Of a DNA stretch of 64,000 nucleotides, positions 33,708 through 41,137 are shown piece after piece (the stretch's first letter is position 1; each line of letters opens with the position of its first letter). The position numbers and the translations under genes were made by a program. Source of the stretch: Escherichia virus KFS-EC3; sequence record MZ065353.1. The stretch is one strand, 5' to 3'. The notes beneath the pieces are model-generated. The model saw only the letters and a list, made by a program, of their open reading frames with translations. It searched no databases and was not told the DNA's origin.

Positions 33708-33956
33708 ATGATTAAACAATTACAACACGCTCTTGAACTGCAACGAAACGCATGGAATAATGGTCACGAAAACTATGGCGCATCTATTGATGTTGAAGCC
33801 GAAGCTCTTGAAATCCTGCGTTATTTCAAACATCTGAATCCTGCTCAAACTGCATTAGCTGCTGAGCTTCAGGAAAAAGATGAACTTAAATATGCTAAGC
33901 CTCTGGCTTCTGCCGCACGAAAAGCAGTTCGTCACTTTGTGGTAACACTGAAGTAA
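33708..33956 (+). CDS. rIII: rIII lysis-inhibition accessory protein
   Basis: 82 aa, T4 rIII length and position after gene 31. Confidence 0.9.
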   Translation: MIKQLQHALELQRNAWNNGHENYGASIDVEAEALEILRYFKHLNPAQTALAAELQEKDELKYAKPLASAARKAVRHFVVTLK

Positions 33957-34327: not shown

Positions 34328-34332
34328 GTTAA

Positions 34333-34356
34333 GGACTCCTTCGGGAGTCCTTTTTT
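34333..34356 (+). terminator. intrinsic terminator (GGACUCC-UUCG-GGAGUCC + T-run)
   Basis: Perfect 7-bp stem with UUCG tetraloop followed by TTTTTT. Confidence 0.75.
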
Positions 34357-34380: not shown

Positions 34381-34413
34381 GTTTACAGTATGGCTCCTTT
34401 GTGATAGTATTAT
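34381..34413 (+). promoter_or_regulatory. early promoter (GTTTAC ... TAGTAT/TATTAT)
   Basis: Third copy of the terminator-then-GTTTAC cassette architecture. Confidence 0.5.
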
Positions 34414-35574: not shown

Positions 35575-35790
35575 ATGTTTAAGAAATTAATCCAGAAATT
35601 ACTGGGCACGGAAATGGTCGAAGTTACTTATCGTGTGACTGATGTCTCTCCGCTCACTGAAGACCATTTAGAGCCATATATTATGACAATTAAAATGCTT
35701 AAACATGATGGCGGATTATCTATTGAAGACCGTTTACCAAGTTATGGTCATTGGGCTGATATTGAAATTATAAGTATTAAAGATGTCTGA
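35575..35790 (+). CDS. hypothetical protein (30.x block)
   Basis: 71-aa ORF. Confidence 0.5.
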   Translation: MFKKLIQKLLGTEMVEVTYRVTDVSPLTEDHLEPYIMTIKMLKHDGGLSIEDRLPSYGHWADIEIISIKDV

Positions 35791-36241
35791 GTTAGAGATT
35801 AGAAGCAATTTTAGATGGCCATCATGTGCATTAAGTAATTTCGCCCAATGGCCTTTTGTTATGGACGGTATCCAATTTGGAGGTCTCGAAGGATTCCTCC
35901 AAGGATGCAAGGTGAAAAATGTTGAACAACAGCGTCGTATATTTGGGTTATCCGGGCTTGCCGCCCAACAAGCTGGACGAGCTTATGCTAGAGCTCAGGA
36001 CCGTGGCACGTTGTTCTGGCTTGGAACTCCGTTTTCAAGATATTCCGAAGCATGGAAAGAATTATACACAAATGCATATTTTGAAGCAGCGTTCCAAAAC
36101 AAGGGCTTTCGCGATGCATTACAAGCCTCGAAAGGAAAAGTTTTGAAGCACAGCATGGCTAGTGGTCTAACAAAAGATGATACAATACTAACCGAAGCTG
36201 AATTTATTGATGTGTTAAACCTATTAAGAGACTCTCTATGA
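35783..36241 (+). CDS. NADAR / YbiA-like domain protein (candidate ADP-ribose-processing hydrolase)
   Basis: 152 aa; motif ALSNFAQWPFVMDG followed by LEGFLQGCK resembles the FSNF...W-P...DG and E-x-x-x-Q signatures of the YbiA/DUF1768 (NADAR) family. Confidence 0.65.
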   Translation: MSELEIRSNFRWPSCALSNFAQWPFVMDGIQFGGLEGFLQGCKVKNVEQQRRIFGLSGLAAQQAGRAYARAQDRGTLFWLGTPFSRYSEAWKELYTNAYFEAAFQNKGFRDALQASKGKVLKHSMASGLTKDDTILTEAEFIDVLNLLRDSL

Positions 36242-37077
36242 AGCCAACTATTTTGACTGATATTGATGGAGTATGTTTAAGCTGGCAATCAGGCCTTCCT
36301 TATTTTGCTCAGAAATATAATCTTCCGTTAGAACATATTTTAAAAATGATCCAAGATGAGAAATTTATTTCTCCAGGTAAACTCTTTAATTGTGATGAAG
36401 AACTTGGTGTCAAGTTAATTGAAAAATACAATCGTTCAGATTTTATTCGTTATTTGTCTCCGTATAAAGATGCCCTGTGTGTAATTAACAAATTAAAAGA
36501 AGATTATAATTTTGTAGCTGTTACAGCATTGGGTGATTCTATTGACGCTCTGTTGAATCGTCAATTTAATTTGAATGCTCTTTTTCCTGGTGCCTTCTCA
36601 GAAGTAATGATGTGTGGTCATGATTCTTCAAAAGAAGAGTTATTCAAAAAGGCAAAAGAGAAATATAACGTAATTTGTTATATTGACGATCTTGCTCACC
36701 ACTGCGATCATGCGAGTGAAATATTAAATGTTCCTGTTTATTGGATGGCTCGAGGAGAGCGTGATAATATTCCAAAAACTGCGCAGCGAGTTTATACATG
36801 GAATGATGTAGAAAATAAGCTTTTTTCGCCGAAGGAAAATAAAGAAAGTTTTGATAGTGAAAAAGCTATAAAAGATTTAATTGAGAAGATGGTTAAAAAC
36901 GATTCTTTTCCTTGGAACACTACCTGGAGAACGCCTGGATTTAATCCTTATAATCATCTATATCATCCATATCAGACACATCCGTTTCAGACATGGAACT
37001 ATATTAAACCTGGTGGCATAGAGTATTTGTATAATAGACCTACTTGTGGTGATAATATTTTCCAAGGAGCATTCTAA
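36238..37077 (+). CDS. HAD-superfamily phosphatase, 5'(3')-deoxyribonucleotidase-like
   Basis: 279 aa; motif I ILTDIDGV, motif II VAVTAL, motif IV CYIDDL. Confidence 0.65.
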   Translation: MKPTILTDIDGVCLSWQSGLPYFAQKYNLPLEHILKMIQDEKFISPGKLFNCDEELGVKLIEKYNRSDFIRYLSPYKDALCVINKLKEDYNFVAVTALGDSIDALLNRQFNLNALFPGAFSEVMMCGHDSSKEELFKKAKEKYNVICYIDDLAHHCDHASEILNVPVYWMARGERDNIPKTAQRVYTWNDVENKLFSPKENKESFDSEKAIKDLIEKMVKNDSFPWNTTWRTPGFNPYNHLYHPYQTHPFQTWNYIKPGGIEYLYNRPTCGDNIFQGAF

Positions 37078-37346
37078 TGTTTGTTGTTCACACTATTTAT
37101 GAAAATGAAGGTAATACTACACGTGATTACGGTCACGTAAATCAATTTTTTAGATGCAATCCAGAATTCCGAGCTCAAAAAGACGAACGAATTTTTAAAA
37201 AATGTGTAGAGCAAGGTTTCATTTATATCAAGCACTGGATGCAAGGAAATAAAGTTAGAACTACATATCATAGGTCTTTAACTGAGCTTAATGATGAATT
37301 GATTTATAATAGAGCTGTAAATCAAACTCTGAAGGATGAACAATGA
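37077..37346 (+). CDS. hypothetical protein (30.1 position)
   Basis: 89-aa ORF, translationally coupled to neighbours. Confidence 0.55.
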   Translation: MFVVHTIYENEGNTTRDYGHVNQFFRCNPEFRAQKDERIFKKCVEQGFIYIKHWMQGNKVRTTYHRSLTELNDELIYNRAVNQTLKDEQ

Positions 37347-38806
37347 TTCTTAAAATTCTGAATGAAATAGCATCTATTGGATCAACTAAGCAGAAGCAAG
37401 CAATTCTTGAAAAGAATAAAGATAATGAATTGCTTAAACGAGTATATCGTCTAACTTATTCTCGTGGGTTACAGTATTATATCAAGAAATGGCCTAAACC
37501 TGGTATTGCTACCCAGAGTTTTGGAATGCTGACTATTACCGATATGCTTGACTTCATTGAATTCACGTTAGCTACTCGGAAATTGACCGGAAATGCTGCA
37601 ATTGAGGAATTGACTGGATATATCACCGATGGTAAAAAGGATGATGTTGAAGTTTTGCGTCGAGTTATGATGCGAGACCTTGAATGCGGTGCTTCAGTAT
37701 CTATTGCAAACAAAGTTTGGCCAGGTTTAATTCCTGAACAACCTCAAATGCTGGCAAGTTCTTATGATGAAAAAGGCATTAGTAAGAATATCAAGTTTCC
37801 AGCTTTTGCGCAGTTAAAAGCAGATGGAGCTCGGTGTTTTGCTGAAGTCCGAGGTGATGAATTAGATGATGTTCGTCTTTTATCACGAGCTGGTAATGAA
37901 TATCTAGGATTAGATCTTCTTAAGGAAGAATTAATCAAAATGACTGCTGAAGCCCGCCAGATTCATCCAGAAGGTGTGTTAATTGATGGCGAATTGGTAT
38001 ACCATGAGCAAGTTAAAAAGGAACCAGAAGGCCTAGATTTTCTTTTTGATGCTTATCCTGAAATTAGTAAAGCTAAAGAATTCGCCGAAGTAGCGGAATC
38101 TCGTACTACTTCTAATGGAATCGCCAATAAATCCTTAAAAGGAACCATTTCTGAAAAAGAAGCTCAATGCATGAAGTTTCAGGTCTGGGATTATGTCCCG
38201 TTGGTAGAAATATACGGTCTTCCGGCGTTTCGTTTAAAATATGATGTACGTTTTTCTAAACTAGAACAAATGACATCAGGATATGATAAAGTAATTTTAA
38301 TTGAAAACCAGGTAGTAAATAACCTAGATGAAGCTAAGGTAATTTATAAAAAGTATATTGACCAAGGTCTTGAAGGTATTATTCTCAAAAATACCGATGG
38401 ATTGTGGGAAAATGCTCGTTCAAAAAATCTCTATAAATTTAAAGAAGTAATTGATGTTGATTTAAAAATTGTAGGAATTTATCCTCACCGTAAAGACCCT
38501 ACTAAAGCAGGTGGATTTATTCTTGAATCAGAGTGTGGAAAAATTAAAGTAAATGCTGGTTCAGGCTTAAAAGATAAAGCCGGTGTAAAATCACATGAAC
38601 TTGACCGTACTCGCATTATGGAAAACCAAAATTATTATATTGGAAAAATTCTAGAGTGCGAATGCAACGGTTGGCTAAAATCTGATGGCCGCACTGATTA
38701 CGTTAAATTATTTCTTCCGATTGCGATTCGTTTACGTGAAGATAAAACTAAAGCTAATACATTCGAGGATGTATTTGGTGATTTTCATGAGGTAACTGGT
38801 CTATGA
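37343..38806 (+). CDS. 30: ATP-dependent DNA ligase
   Basis: 487 aa, T4 ligase length; adenylation motif KADGAR. Confidence 0.97.
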   Translation: MILKILNEIASIGSTKQKQAILEKNKDNELLKRVYRLTYSRGLQYYIKKWPKPGIATQSFGMLTITDMLDFIEFTLATRKLTGNAAIEELTGYITDGKKDDVEVLRRVMMRDLECGASVSIANKVWPGLIPEQPQMLASSYDEKGISKNIKFPAFAQLKADGARCFAEVRGDELDDVRLLSRAGNEYLGLDLLKEELIKMTAEARQIHPEGVLIDGELVYHEQVKKEPEGLDFLFDAYPEISKAKEFAEVAESRTTSNGIANKSLKGTISEKEAQCMKFQVWDYVPLVEIYGLPAFRLKYDVRFSKLEQMTSGYDKVILIENQVVNNLDEAKVIYKKYIDQGLEGIILKNTDGLWENARSKNLYKFKEVIDVDLKIVGIYPHRKDPTKAGGFILESECGKIKVNAGSGLKDKAGVKSHELDRTRIMENQNYYIGKILECECNGWLKSDGRTDYVKLFLPIAIRLREDKTKANTFEDVFGDFHEVTGL

Positions 38807-38991
38807 AAGCTTACTTAGAAACAATTGTCGTTGCTCAAAAAGAAGGTGGAGATGTTTCTACTTCTGTATCACAAATCGTTCTCGAATTTGTAGATGCATA
38901 TGCTTATAATAAATTTACAGAAACATTTGATGCCTACGAAAAAGGTCCAAAGTTTGAAATATATCGTACTCTCTTACCACTAGATTATTAA
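38803..38991 (+). CDS. hypothetical protein
   Basis: 62-aa ORF, start overlaps ligase stop. Confidence 0.5.
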   Translation: MKAYLETIVVAQKEGGDVSTSVSQIVLEFVDAYAYNKFTETFDAYEKGPKFEIYRTLLPLDY

Positions 38992-39012
38992 AGGCCTTCG
39001 GGCCTTTAATTT
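38992..39012 (+). terminator. hairpin (AGGCC-UUCG-GGCCU) + U-rich tail
   Basis: UUCG tetraloop hairpin followed by TTAATTTT. Confidence 0.5.
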
Positions 39013-39020: not shown

Positions 39021-39043
39021 GAATAAACACTAGAGAGGATATG

Positions 39044-41137
39044 ATGGAACTCATTACAGAATTATTTGACGAAGATACTACTCTTCCGATTACAAACTTA
39101 AATCCAAAGAAGAAAATACCACAAATTTTTTCAGTTCATGTTGATGACGCAATTGAACAACCAGGCTTTCGTTTATGTACCTATACATCTGGAGGTGATA
39201 CTAATCGCGATTTAAAAATGGGCGATAAAATGATGCATATTGTTCCTTTTACATTAACTGCTAAAGGTTCAATTGCTAAATTAAAAGGTCTCGGTCCAAG
39301 CCCAATTAATTACATCAATTCAGTTTTTACTGTTGCGATGCAGACGATGCGTCAGTATAAAATTGATGCCTGTATGCTTCGTATTCTTAAGTCTAAAACT
39401 GCTGGTCAAGCTCGACAAATTCAAGTTATTGCTGATAGACTTATCCGCAGTCGTTCAGGTGGCAGATACGTCCTTCTTAAGAAACTCTGGGATTACGATA
39501 AAAAGTATGCATATATTCTTATACATCGCAAAAATGTATCACTAGAAGACATTCCAGGAGTTCCGGAAATTAGCACCGAGCTCTTTACTAAAGTTGAATC
39601 GAAGGTCGGTGATGTTTATATCAATAAAGATACTGGAGCTCAAGTAACTAAAAATGAGGCAATTGCTGCATCTATTGCGCAAGAAAATGATAAACGTTCT
39701 GACCAAGCTGTAATCGTTAAAGTTAAAATTTCCCGTAGAGCAATTGCACAAAGTCAGTCATTAGAATCTTCTAGATTTGAAAGCGAATTATTCCAGAAGT
39801 ATGAATCTACCGCAGCTAATTTCAATAAACCTGCTACCGCTCCTTTAATTCCCGAAGCAGAAGAAATGAAACTTGGAATTAATTCATTAGCTTCTAAAAC
39901 TAAGGCAGCAAAAATTATTGCCGAAGGAACCACAGATGAACTTCATTATGACTATAAATTCTTTTCAAAAAGTGAGGTTAATGAAGTTTCTGAAAAAATT
40001 AAAGACGTAATTTTTAACGCGATCAAAAATGAACCGACTACTTCAATAAAATGTTTAGAGAAGTATGCAGCAGCTATTAATAAATTCTTTGAAGAATATA
40101 AAGATAATTGGCTTGATAAACATAATAAAACCCGTAAAGGACAGCCAGATGAAGTCTGGGAAGAAATGACTAAAAATTCCTGGAACGCAGCAAAAACTAA
40201 ATTCCTCAAAAGAATGATTTATAGTTTTTCTGGAATTGGTGCAGGTCCAATGATTGATATTACTATTGCCCGTGATGGTTCTAAATATACTCCATCACAA
40301 AAGCGCGGCATTAGAGAGTATTGCGGTTCAGGATATACTGACATCAATAATCTTCTTTTAGGACGCTACAATCCAGAACGATATGATGTAATGAGTGAAA
40401 AAGAAATTGAATCTGCTATAAATAACTTAGATTCAGCTTTTGAAAATGGTGACCGTATACCAGAAGGCATTACAGTTTATCGTGCTCAAAGTATGACTGC
40501 TCCTATATACGAAGCACTAGTTAAAAATAAAGTGTTCTATTTCAGAAATTTTGTATCTACTTCTTTAACTCCTATCATTTTTGGACGTTTTGGAATTACA
40601 CATGCTGGTATTGGTCTTTTAGAACCAGAAGCTCGTAATGAACTGACAGTTGATAAAAATGAAGAAGGAATAACTATTAATCCAAACGAAATAAGAGCGT
40701 ATAAAGAAAATCCTGAATACGTTAAAGTTCAAATAGGATGGGCAATTGATGGAGCTCATAAAGTTAATGTTGTATATCCAGGAAGTCTCGGAATAGCAAC
40801 AGAAGCTGAAGTTATTCTACCACGCGGATTGATGGTCAAAGTTAATAAAATAACTGATGCTTCTAATAATGACGGAACAACATCTAATAATACAAAACTC
40901 ATTCAAGCTGAAGTTATGACTACGGAAGAACTCACCGAATCAGTAATTTATGACGGTGATCGTCTAATGGAAACTGGTGAAGTAGTTGCAATGACAGGTG
41001 ATATTGAAATAGAAGACAGAGTTGACTTTGCATCATTTGTTTCATCAAATGTTAAACAAAAAGTAGAATCATCTCTTGGAATTATTGCGTCTTGCATAGA
41101 TATTACAAACATGCCTTACAAGTTCGTTCAAGGATAA
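39044..41137 (+). CDS. alt: Alt ADP-ribosyltransferase (packaged, injected)
   Basis: 697 aa; N-terminus MELITELFDEDTTLPITNLNPKKKIPQIF matches recalled T4 Alt; C-terminal R / STS / ExE motifs (YRAQ, FVSTSL, EAEVILPRG). Confidence 0.85.
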   Translation: MELITELFDEDTTLPITNLNPKKKIPQIFSVHVDDAIEQPGFRLCTYTSGGDTNRDLKMGDKMMHIVPFTLTAKGSIAKLKGLGPSPINYINSVFTVAMQTMRQYKIDACMLRILKSKTAGQARQIQVIADRLIRSRSGGRYVLLKKLWDYDKKYAYILIHRKNVSLEDIPGVPEISTELFTKVESKVGDVYINKDTGAQVTKNEAIAASIAQENDKRSDQAVIVKVKISRRAIAQSQSLESSRFESELFQKYESTAANFNKPATAPLIPEAEEMKLGINSLASKTKAAKIIAEGTTDELHYDYKFFSKSEVNEVSEKIKDVIFNAIKNEPTTSIKCLEKYAAAINKFFEEYKDNWLDKHNKTRKGQPDEVWEEMTKNSWNAAKTKFLKRMIYSFSGIGAGPMIDITIARDGSKYTPSQKRGIREYCGSGYTDINNLLLGRYNPERYDVMSEKEIESAINNLDSAFENGDRIPEGITVYRAQSMTAPIYEALVKNKVFYFRNFVSTSLTPIIFGRFGITHAGIGLLEPEARNELTVDKNEEGITINPNEIRAYKENPEYVKVQIGWAIDGAHKVNVVYPGSLGIATEAEVILPRGLMVKVNKITDASNNDGTTSNNTKLIQAEVMTTEELTESVIYDGDRLMETGEVVAMTGDIEIEDRVDFASFVSSNVKQKVESSLGIIASCIDITNMPYKFVQG

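Follow-up and report, generated by a model that had tools for sequence, protein, structure and literature searches.

Do two overlapping genes that lie just upstream of a phage DNA ligase gene, one resembling the NADAR enzymes of ADP-ribose metabolism and the other the HAD-family nucleotidases, work together, or are they neighbours by accident of a compact genome? The question arises from a locus of Escherichia virus KFS-EC3 (sequence record MZ065353.1), of which we analysed a stretch of 64,000 nucleotides, hereafter the window. An earlier note, made from the sequence alone, had read the first gene as a NADAR protein with a plausible part in counter-defence or DNA repair, and had suggested a functional link with the nucleotidase-like gene to which it appeared to be translationally coupled. 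For the activity of AdfN, its DarTG1 phenotype and the neutrality of gene 30.2 we rely on published work; the identity with T4 AdfN, the folds, the catalytic residues, the HAD motifs and the synteny come from our own analysis.

The locus in a T4-like genome

The 2 kb surrounding the gene pair are 96-97% identical in DNA sequence to many Tequatrovirus records, and the window is a T4-like (Tequatrovirus) genome. Its gene order is that of T4: 31, rIII, 30.9, 30.8, 30.7, 30.6, 30.4, 30.3, 30.2, 30.1, 30 (ligase), alt.1 and alt. Compared with T4, the window lacks gene 30.5 and its upstream 30.4 allele is RB69-like, the encoded protein being 72% identical to gp30.4 of RB69 and 49% identical to that of T4. 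The features around the pair are as follows.

33708-33956: rIII
35575..35790, + strand: gene 30.4-like ORF, 71 aa, overlapping the adfN start by 8 nt
35783..36241, + strand: gene 30.3 = adfN, 152 aa, full length (from the ORF, Pfam, T4 comparison and fold)
36238..37077, + strand: gene 30.2, 279 aa (from the ORF, phrog_420, HAD motifs and fold)
37077-37346, + strand: gene 30.1 (DUF3045; from the ORF and Pfam)
37343-38806, + strand: gene 30, ATP-dependent DNA ligase, 487 aa (from the ORF and Pfam)

Both ORFs were found where the earlier note had placed them, between rIII and the ligase gene, together with all the peptides it had quoted: ALSNFAQWPFVMDG at aa 16-29 and LEGFLQGCK at aa 35-43 of the 152-aa product, and DIDGV at aa 8-12, VAVTAL at aa 93-98 and YIDDL at aa 148-152 of the 279-aa product. 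Its description of the surroundings as a block of unannotated ORFs has to be corrected: the block corresponds to T4 genes 30.9 to 30.1, several of which have Pfam families of their own. The 152-aa protein matches Pfam PF08010 (Phage_30_3) with E=1.5e-68 and the 279-aa protein matches phrog_420 with E=6.7e-93, both far beyond what chance would give. In single-sequence searches (Pfam at E<=1, NCBIfam at E<=10 and phmmer against PDB sequences) these were the only family labels obtained for the two proteins, gp30.2 by itself matching nothing in Pfam or NCBIfam.

The 152-residue protein as a NADAR

The 152-aa ORF can be assigned as the ortholog of T4 gene 30.3 (adfN), within the gp30.3/AdfN clade of NADARs. 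Aligned over the whole length, 147 of its 152 residues (97%) are identical to those of T4 gp30.3, and the five substitutions (A67/S, T82/V, E89/P, F104/I and M125/I, window/T4) all fall outside the catalytic residues.

Does this protein belong to the NADAR superfamily? As a single sequence it did not match the Pfam NADAR model (PF08719) at E<=1, and phmmer against PDB sequences returned no match. Since searches of this kind were uninformative, we turned to profiles, to scans of the whole family and to structure prediction. At the level of the family, PF08719 was matched by 26 of the 69 gp30.3-family (PF08010) relatives, with a best E-value of 1.5e-7, and a profile of the gp30.3 family retrieved E. 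coli YbiA (E=0.0052) over the SNF...E-x-x-F-Q-x-x-K core. The AlphaFold2 model of the window protein (pLDDT 93.1) has a NADAR fold. A Foldseek comparison of this model with the PDB gave as its top three matches YbiA (2b3w), PnNADAR of Phytophthora bound to ADP-ribose (8bau) and the NADAR of Geobacter lovleyi (8bat), with probabilities of 0.99-1.00; beyond these three solved NADARs, the next match had an E-value of 3.8. YbiA was the best PDB match, and the E-x-F-x-Q-x-x-K motif aligns to that of YbiA. The NADAR reading, for which an HMM search and a structural comparison with YbiA had been proposed, is thus upheld by the fold, by the relatives and by the family profile, while the HMM search itself was negative for the single sequence. 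On these profile and model grounds we consider membership of the superfamily to be solid.

The NADAR motifs occur in the right order, with ALSNF at aa 16-20 followed by E36-G-F-L-Q-G-C-K43. Three codons stand out.

35888..35890, + strand: GAA, E36, catalytic glutamate, invariant in 69 family members
35909..35911, + strand: AAG, K43, catalytic lysine of E-x-F-x-Q-x-x-K, conserved in at least 90% of 69 family members
36149..36151, + strand: CAC, H123, replacing the Glu/Asp of other NADARs, invariant in the 69-member family alignment

In the model, H123 comes directly after the last strand (E120-122), and a C-terminal helix is present at aa 138-151. Gene 30.3 measures 459 nt in the window and 414 nt in RB69.

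The function of adfN was solved in 2024-2025. Johannesman et al. (Nat Commun 2025) traced the resistance of T-even phages to DarTG1 back to gene 30.3, which they renamed adfN (PMC11825919). Purified T4 AdfN strips ADP-ribose from DarT1-modified DNA in vitro, the E36A mutant being inactive under these conditions, and deletion of adfN sensitises to DarTG1 both wild-type T4 and T4-GT7, a strain with unmodified DNA (PMC11825919). In rescue assays with RB69, the E36A and K43A mutants of AdfN(T4) each rescue only partially (PMC11825919). RB69 itself carries a truncated 30.3 allele and is sensitive to DarTG1 because a frameshift deletes the last 15 residues of its gp30.3; AdfN(T4) cut at the position of the RB69 frameshift stop has reduced activity (PMC11825919). 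In an independent study, it is from guanine, and not from thymidine, that gp30.3 takes off ADP-ribose (PMC11125620). The phage gp30.3 subclass is recognised by a His where other NADARs have Glu/Asp (PMC11125620; PMC11825919). Outside T-even infection, full activity of AdfN is reported to require a further T-even factor (PMC11825919), and in uninfected cells the protein reportedly does not rescue from DarT1 toxicity (PMC11825919; PMC11125620).

The counter-defence role put forward for the window gene is therefore correct, but it had already been published for the T4 protein, which is 97% identical (AdfN; PMC11825919). The NADAR/counter-defence identity of the 152-aa gene being already known, the window copy adds only the confirmation of an intact, probably active allele. 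We consider this allele most likely active, because it is full length with its C-terminal helix and its substitutions avoid the catalytic residues. Given an identity of 97%, we would expect it to behave like that of T4.

Could the protein instead act mainly as YbiA would, on soluble ADP-ribose derivatives or riboflavin-pathway intermediates and not on DNA? Its closest solved structure is indeed that of YbiA. However, the phage clade has His where YbiA has Glu, and the T4 protein de-ADP-ribosylates DNA in vitro, with phenotypes specific to DarTG1. These published T4 assays largely refute a soluble substrate as the main target, and we give that view next to no credence.

Gene 30.2 and the HAD fold

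The earlier note had identified the 279-aa protein as a HAD phosphatase resembling 5'(3')-deoxyribonucleotidases. All four HAD motifs are present in the following region.

36238..36822, + strand: catalytic part of gene 30.2, aa 1-195, C1-capped HAD, with motif I D8-x-D10-x-V, motif II T96, motif III K132 and motif IV D150-D151

In an alignment of 64 homologs, D8, D10 and K132 are invariant and T96, D150 and D151 are conserved in at least 90%; W16 is also invariant. The AlphaFold2 model is confident for aa 1-195, with a core at pLDDT >90, and shows motifs I and II separated by a helical cap. Foldseek returned 101 PDB matches for this model at E<=1e-3; among the matches listed, the top ones are HAD-fold enzymes, which include the cytosolic and mitochondrial 5'(3')-deoxyribonucleotidases. 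At the level of the superfamily the earlier assignment stands, and we regard gp30.2 as a HAD-superfamily phosphatase with a C1-capped fold, an identification that motifs and predicted structure make secure.

The narrower label fares less well. A profile of gp30.2 against the PDB gave a single and weak match, to the cytosolic deoxyribonucleotidase cdN (2jao, E=0.047), and Pfam NT5C (PF06941) was matched by 11 of the 64 relatives and not by gp30.2 itself. In the alignment with 2jao, W16 of gp30.2 stands opposite the Phe located eight residues after the nucleophile, and an SGL motif is identical in the two proteins. In cdN and in its mitochondrial counterpart mdN, this Phe stacks on the base of the nucleoside. 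These signals are consistent with one another and point weakly to a deoxyribonucleotidase-like enzyme, and the label amounts to a reasonable but unproven guess. A search of the literature for the function of 30.2 or gp30.2 retrieved nothing relevant. The gene is non-essential on E. coli K-12, where transposon insertions were recovered at 72/72 sites.

A chain of overlapping genes

As previously noted, the stop codon of the 152-aa ORF overlaps the start codon of the 279-aa ORF. The overlap covers four nucleotides.

36238..36241, + strand: ATGA stop/start overlap of 30.3 and 30.2, in the context cTATGAag

Just ahead of it stands AAGAGA, which weakly resembles a Shine-Dalgarno sequence. The overlap is kept in T4 and in 12 of 12 close IMG/VR loci, and Tequatrovirus- and Mosigvirus-like loci strictly retain it together with the upstream AGAGA. 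It is also one of five consecutive overlaps: 8 nt between 30.4 and 30.3, 4 nt between 30.3 and 30.2, 1 nt between 30.2 and 30.1, 4 nt between 30.1 and 30, and 4 nt between 30 and alt.1. Overlapping is a general style of this gene cluster and is not specific to 30.3/30.2.

We found no match to a MotA-box middle promoter ahead of the gene pair in the 33.2-41.9 kb interval, and a scan with the sigma-70 consensus returned 25 promoter-like sites, fewer than in shuffled sequence (mean of 30). With no MotA box and sigma-70 sites below the shuffled level, the extent of the transcription unit, and hence the co-transcription of the cluster, is something that we infer.

Is the 30.3-30.2 pairing functional?

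One may imagine a two-step system, in which AdfN would free ADP-ribose and gp30.2 would process either ADP-ribose or its breakdown products, or else would potentiate AdfN as the T-even factor, translational coupling fixing the ratio of the two proteins. Several observations would fit such a scheme. Close relatives retain the ATGA overlap, and the sets of phage records in which 30.3 and 30.2 occur, about 1,450-1,500 in number, are nearly identical. The reported need of AdfN for another T-even factor might conceivably be served by the neighbouring gene, and RB69, in which ectopic AdfN works fully, carries 30.2. There is also a bacterial precedent, as ADP-ribosylglycohydrolase genes are found coupled to phosphatase genes, one of them encoding a HAD 5'-nucleotidase (PMC9503650).

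The genetic data speak against it. In the published HIDEN-SEQ experiment, a preprint in which a T4 transposon library was passed on a darTG1 host and whose DarTG1 table apparently comes from one library pair, insertions in 30.3 were lost (log2FC -7.25, padj 0) and insertions in 30.2 were neutral (71 insertion sites, log2FC -0.12, p 0.61), the only two significant genes being 30.3 and 30.4 (log2FC -1.79, padj 0.014). In a screen of this kind, a small contribution of 30.2 could be hidden by redundant phosphatases, for example NudE.

Is the association of the two genes at least preserved across phages? We compared 80 gp30.3-family loci and 80 gp30.2-family loci from IMG/VR. A gp30.2-family HAD gene lies within 4 kb of only 24 of the 80 gp30.3-family loci, and it abuts the NADAR gene only in Tequatrovirus- and Mosigvirus-like contigs plus one other. 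Seen from the HAD side, the NADAR gene is abutting in 16 of 80 loci and 47-1228 nt upstream in 22, with no NADAR gene within 4 kb in the remaining 42. On several complete T4-like contigs, about 55 kb separate the two genes; loci L051 and L160, which share a contig of 167,773 bp, are an example. The relocated NADAR gene of such a T4-like phage adjoins the anti-CBASS gene acb1 and a dNMP kinase gene; no phosphatase or Nudix gene was present beside the relocated NADARs in the two loci inspected. Likewise, no NADAR-HAD fusion protein was found among about 200 homologs. From these comparisons, adjacency of 30.3 and 30.2 is lineage-specific.

The functional link between the NADAR and the HAD protein thus finds no support, owing to the generic overlaps, the broken synteny and the transposon genetics, and we hold a two-step system to be very unlikely. 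The useful outcome here is a negative one: the idea of the HAD protein as a partner of AdfN is contradicted both by transposon data and by comparative genomics.

A possible connection of gp30.2 with DNA ligase

A different neighbour is far more constant. A DNA ligase gene lies downstream of the HAD gene, directly and on the same strand, in 72 of the 80 HAD loci, and this across distant T4-like phages. This ligase-proximal position is the strongest contextual clue to the role of gp30.2, which may be functionally tied to DNA ligase or replication, as an NT5C-like nucleotidase trimming the nucleotide pool or a by-product near the fork and tethered there by its tail. The lone PDB profile match to a 5'(3')-deoxyribonucleotidase, with its aligned W16/Phe pair and identical SGL, and the relatives matching NT5C would agree with an enzyme of this type. 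However, gene order beside an essential core gene may be mere inherited synteny, and 30.2 is dispensable on K-12. On balance we find a tie of gp30.2 to ligase or replication unlikely.

The tail invoked in this scheme corresponds to the last third of the protein.

36823..37077, + strand: C-terminal tail of gene 30.2, aa 196-279, mostly of low model confidence and variable between phages
37018-37032, + strand: codons for IEYLY, within the GIEYLYNRPT motif of the tail (aa 259-268)

Rich in aromatic residues and proline, the tail has one predicted helix (205-220) and pLDDT <50 at aa 226-232 and 239-279, so that the model suggests a disordered chain beyond about residue 225. A motif of the form GIEY[LWY]xx(Q/R)PT is kept between the window protein and homologs that are about 47-66% identical, in tails that are otherwise unalignable, an observation in favour of the replication scheme. 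Against this scheme, many homologs are 196-220 aa long and have no tail, and some carry a different motif, the short tail motifs being conserved within subgroups.

In the T4 genome, gp43 ends with SLDFLFG and gp55 with SLDFLYEAND. The IEYLY of gp30.2 resembles these clamp-binding SLDFL(F/Y) ends; this is a lead noticed after the fact and involving five residues, which makes it a weak argument for recruitment to the replication machinery. The tail peptide PGGIEYLYNRPT is a candidate binder of the gp45 clamp or of the gp30 ligase.

Taken in its full form, the proposal that gp30.2 is a replication-associated NT5C-like nucleotidase, with DNA ligase as its partner and the GIEYLY tail motif as its means of recruitment, is quite improbable. 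If true, it would mean that a new accessory activity operates at the replication fork of T4. Still less likely is that gp30.2 is the T-even factor potentiating AdfN, with its effect masked by redundancy in the transposon screen.

Two probably independent enzymes in a packed cluster

Considering all of the above, the best explanation overall is very probably that of a stand-alone AdfN and an independent HAD phosphatase, gp30.2, which abut through the packing of their cluster. AdfN would be a NADAR-fold glycohydrolase acting on its own and produced early in infection. It would cleave the N-glycosidic bond between guanine and ADP-ribose on the single-stranded DNA of the phage, and erasing the marks written by DarT1 in this way would allow replication to go on in hosts that carry DarTG1. 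The residues used in catalysis would be the Glu and Lys of the E-x-F-x-Q-x-x-K motif, E36 and K43, together with the phage-specific H123; full activity would need the C-terminal helix, which is intact in the window.

For its part, gp30.2 would work independently, as a HAD phosphatase that depends on Mg and ends in a variable, disordered tail. Since its C1 cap is helical, its substrate is most probably a small phosphorylated molecule, for instance a (deoxy)nucleoside monophosphate. The two genes would abut because the whole cluster from 30.4 to alt.1 is tightly packed and polycistronic, and not because their products form a two-enzyme system.

Comparison with known systems

With the NT5C enzymes cdN and mdN (2jao, 2i7d and 1q92; 3bwv in S. 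epidermidis), gp30.2 shares the DxDxV nucleophile motif, the Thr, Lys and DD motifs and the SGL motif, as well as a C1 cap made of helices and, eight positions after the nucleophile, an aromatic residue (W16 in place of Phe). It differs from them by an extra disordered tail of 80 residues, and identity is only 14-21%.

On the NADAR side, E. coli YbiA (2b3w), a housekeeping N-glycosidase of the riboflavin pathway, is the best structural match of AdfN (E=2.7e-5, TM 0.67) and shares with it the SNF...E-x-x-F-Q-x-x-K core, although the two proteins are only 19% identical and H123 is replaced by Glu in YbiA. This third catalytic position distinguishes three types, with His in phage gp30.3, Asp in the DarG1 type and Glu in YbiA. 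The NADAR antitoxins of the DarG1/DarT1-linked kind (G. lovleyi, 8bat) and PnNADAR (8bau) have in common with the phage protein their fold and the de-ADP-ribosylation of guanine in DNA, an activity published for T4 gp30.3. Unlike the DarG1/DarT1-linked NADARs, the window AdfN has no N-terminal extension and no adjoining DarT toxin, and is thus an orphan gene. Its closest counterpart is T4 AdfN itself (gp30.3). Five non-catalytic substitutions separate the two proteins and nothing points to a different function; they agree in length, in the location of their genes between 30.4 and 30.2, in the E36, K43 and H123 residues and in having an intact C-terminal helix.

The 30.x genes around adfN

The gene of the NADAR-family protein AdfN (gp30.3) is preceded by a 30.4 homolog and contains an open frame equivalent to 30.3' of T4:

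35575-35790 (+), 30.4 homolog, directly 5' of adfN and overlapping it
35919-36146 (+), 30.3'-equivalent internal ORF of 75 aa, in another frame inside adfN

The 30.4 homolog has 72% identity to gp30.4 of RB69 but only 49% to that of T4, and, like RB69, this phage has no counterpart of T4 30.5; the 30.x cluster is thus mosaic. The published T4 transposon screen gave just one significant gene besides adfN that is conditional on DarTG1, the defence system countered by T4 AdfN: 30.4 (log2FC -1.79, padj 0.014). This signal could reflect polarity on the overlapping adfN or, alternatively, a genuine contribution of 30.4.

The T4 annotation describes 30.3' as 'internal translation in a different reading frame'. 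This frame is open over 53-75 aa in T4 and in the 12 IMG/VR loci that we compared, all close relatives (AdfN protein identity of 84-97%).

Many truncated or fused gp30.3 variants are present in public data (proteins P0104-P0118, P0155 and P0206). The truncated ones are 83-126 aa long, while the fused ones bear Pfam domains of gp30.7, gp30.8 or PF11097. Together with the known frameshift allele of RB69 30.3 (L162, 8268-8681), these variants suggest that loss or rearrangement of adfN may be common in nature. Deletions may also cluster in the 30.x block as a hot spot.

ADP-ribose genes and genomic context

An Alt homolog lies on the same strand as adfN, and several candidate signals were found around the genes from 30.8 to alt.1:

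34331-34352 (+), strong terminator-like hairpin, 9 bp followed by a T-run, 3' of a 30.9-like ORF
34382-34410 (+), promoter-like site with extended -10 TG, 3' of this hairpin
38990-39012 (+), GC-rich hairpin AAAGGCCTTCGGGCCTTT, between alt.1 and alt
39041-41137 (+), Alt ADP-ribosyltransferase homolog, 698 aa, 2.8 kb 3' of adfN

A single block thus holds a phage ADP-ribose writer and a DNA ADP-ribose eraser, an arrangement already remarked in T4-like phages (PMC9503650). The two hairpins and the promoter-like site may be the bounds of a putative 30.8-to-alt.1 transcription unit.

NADAR genes that are not near ligase have different neighbours. One, on a T4-like contig of 167.8 kb (L051, 2731-4453), lies about 0.8 kb 3' of the anti-CBASS gene Acb1 and near a dNMP kinase gene, in what looks like an anti-defence neighbourhood; another, on a 254-kb contig (L020, 13-4495), immediately follows nrdD/nrdG-like genes.

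The HAD gene, DNA ligase and the gp30.2 tail

The HAD phosphatase gene (gp30.2) is followed by the ligase gene:

36238-38806 (+), HAD gene through ligase gene
36823-37077 (+), gp30.2 tail, aa 196-279
37018-37032 (+), IEYLY motif of the tail

Of the 80 gp30.2-family loci (IMG/VR L082-L161), 72 have a same-strand ligase gene 3' of the HAD gene. These 72 include T4-like phages of Acinetobacter, Aeromonas and Vibrio type, where 30.1, 30.3 and the other 30.x genes are absent or have moved.

The aromatic- and proline-rich tail is mostly of low confidence or disordered in the predicted model, where pLDDT falls below 50 at about aa 226. It is absent from many homologs (forms of 196-220 aa). Its short conserved motifs differ by phage group: GIEY[LWY]xx(Q/R)PT, LRAYY, VPDYVLLNK..NDS and ALLGM. 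The IEYLY of our tail is similar to the clamp-binding SLDFL(F/Y) of T4 gp43 and gp55.
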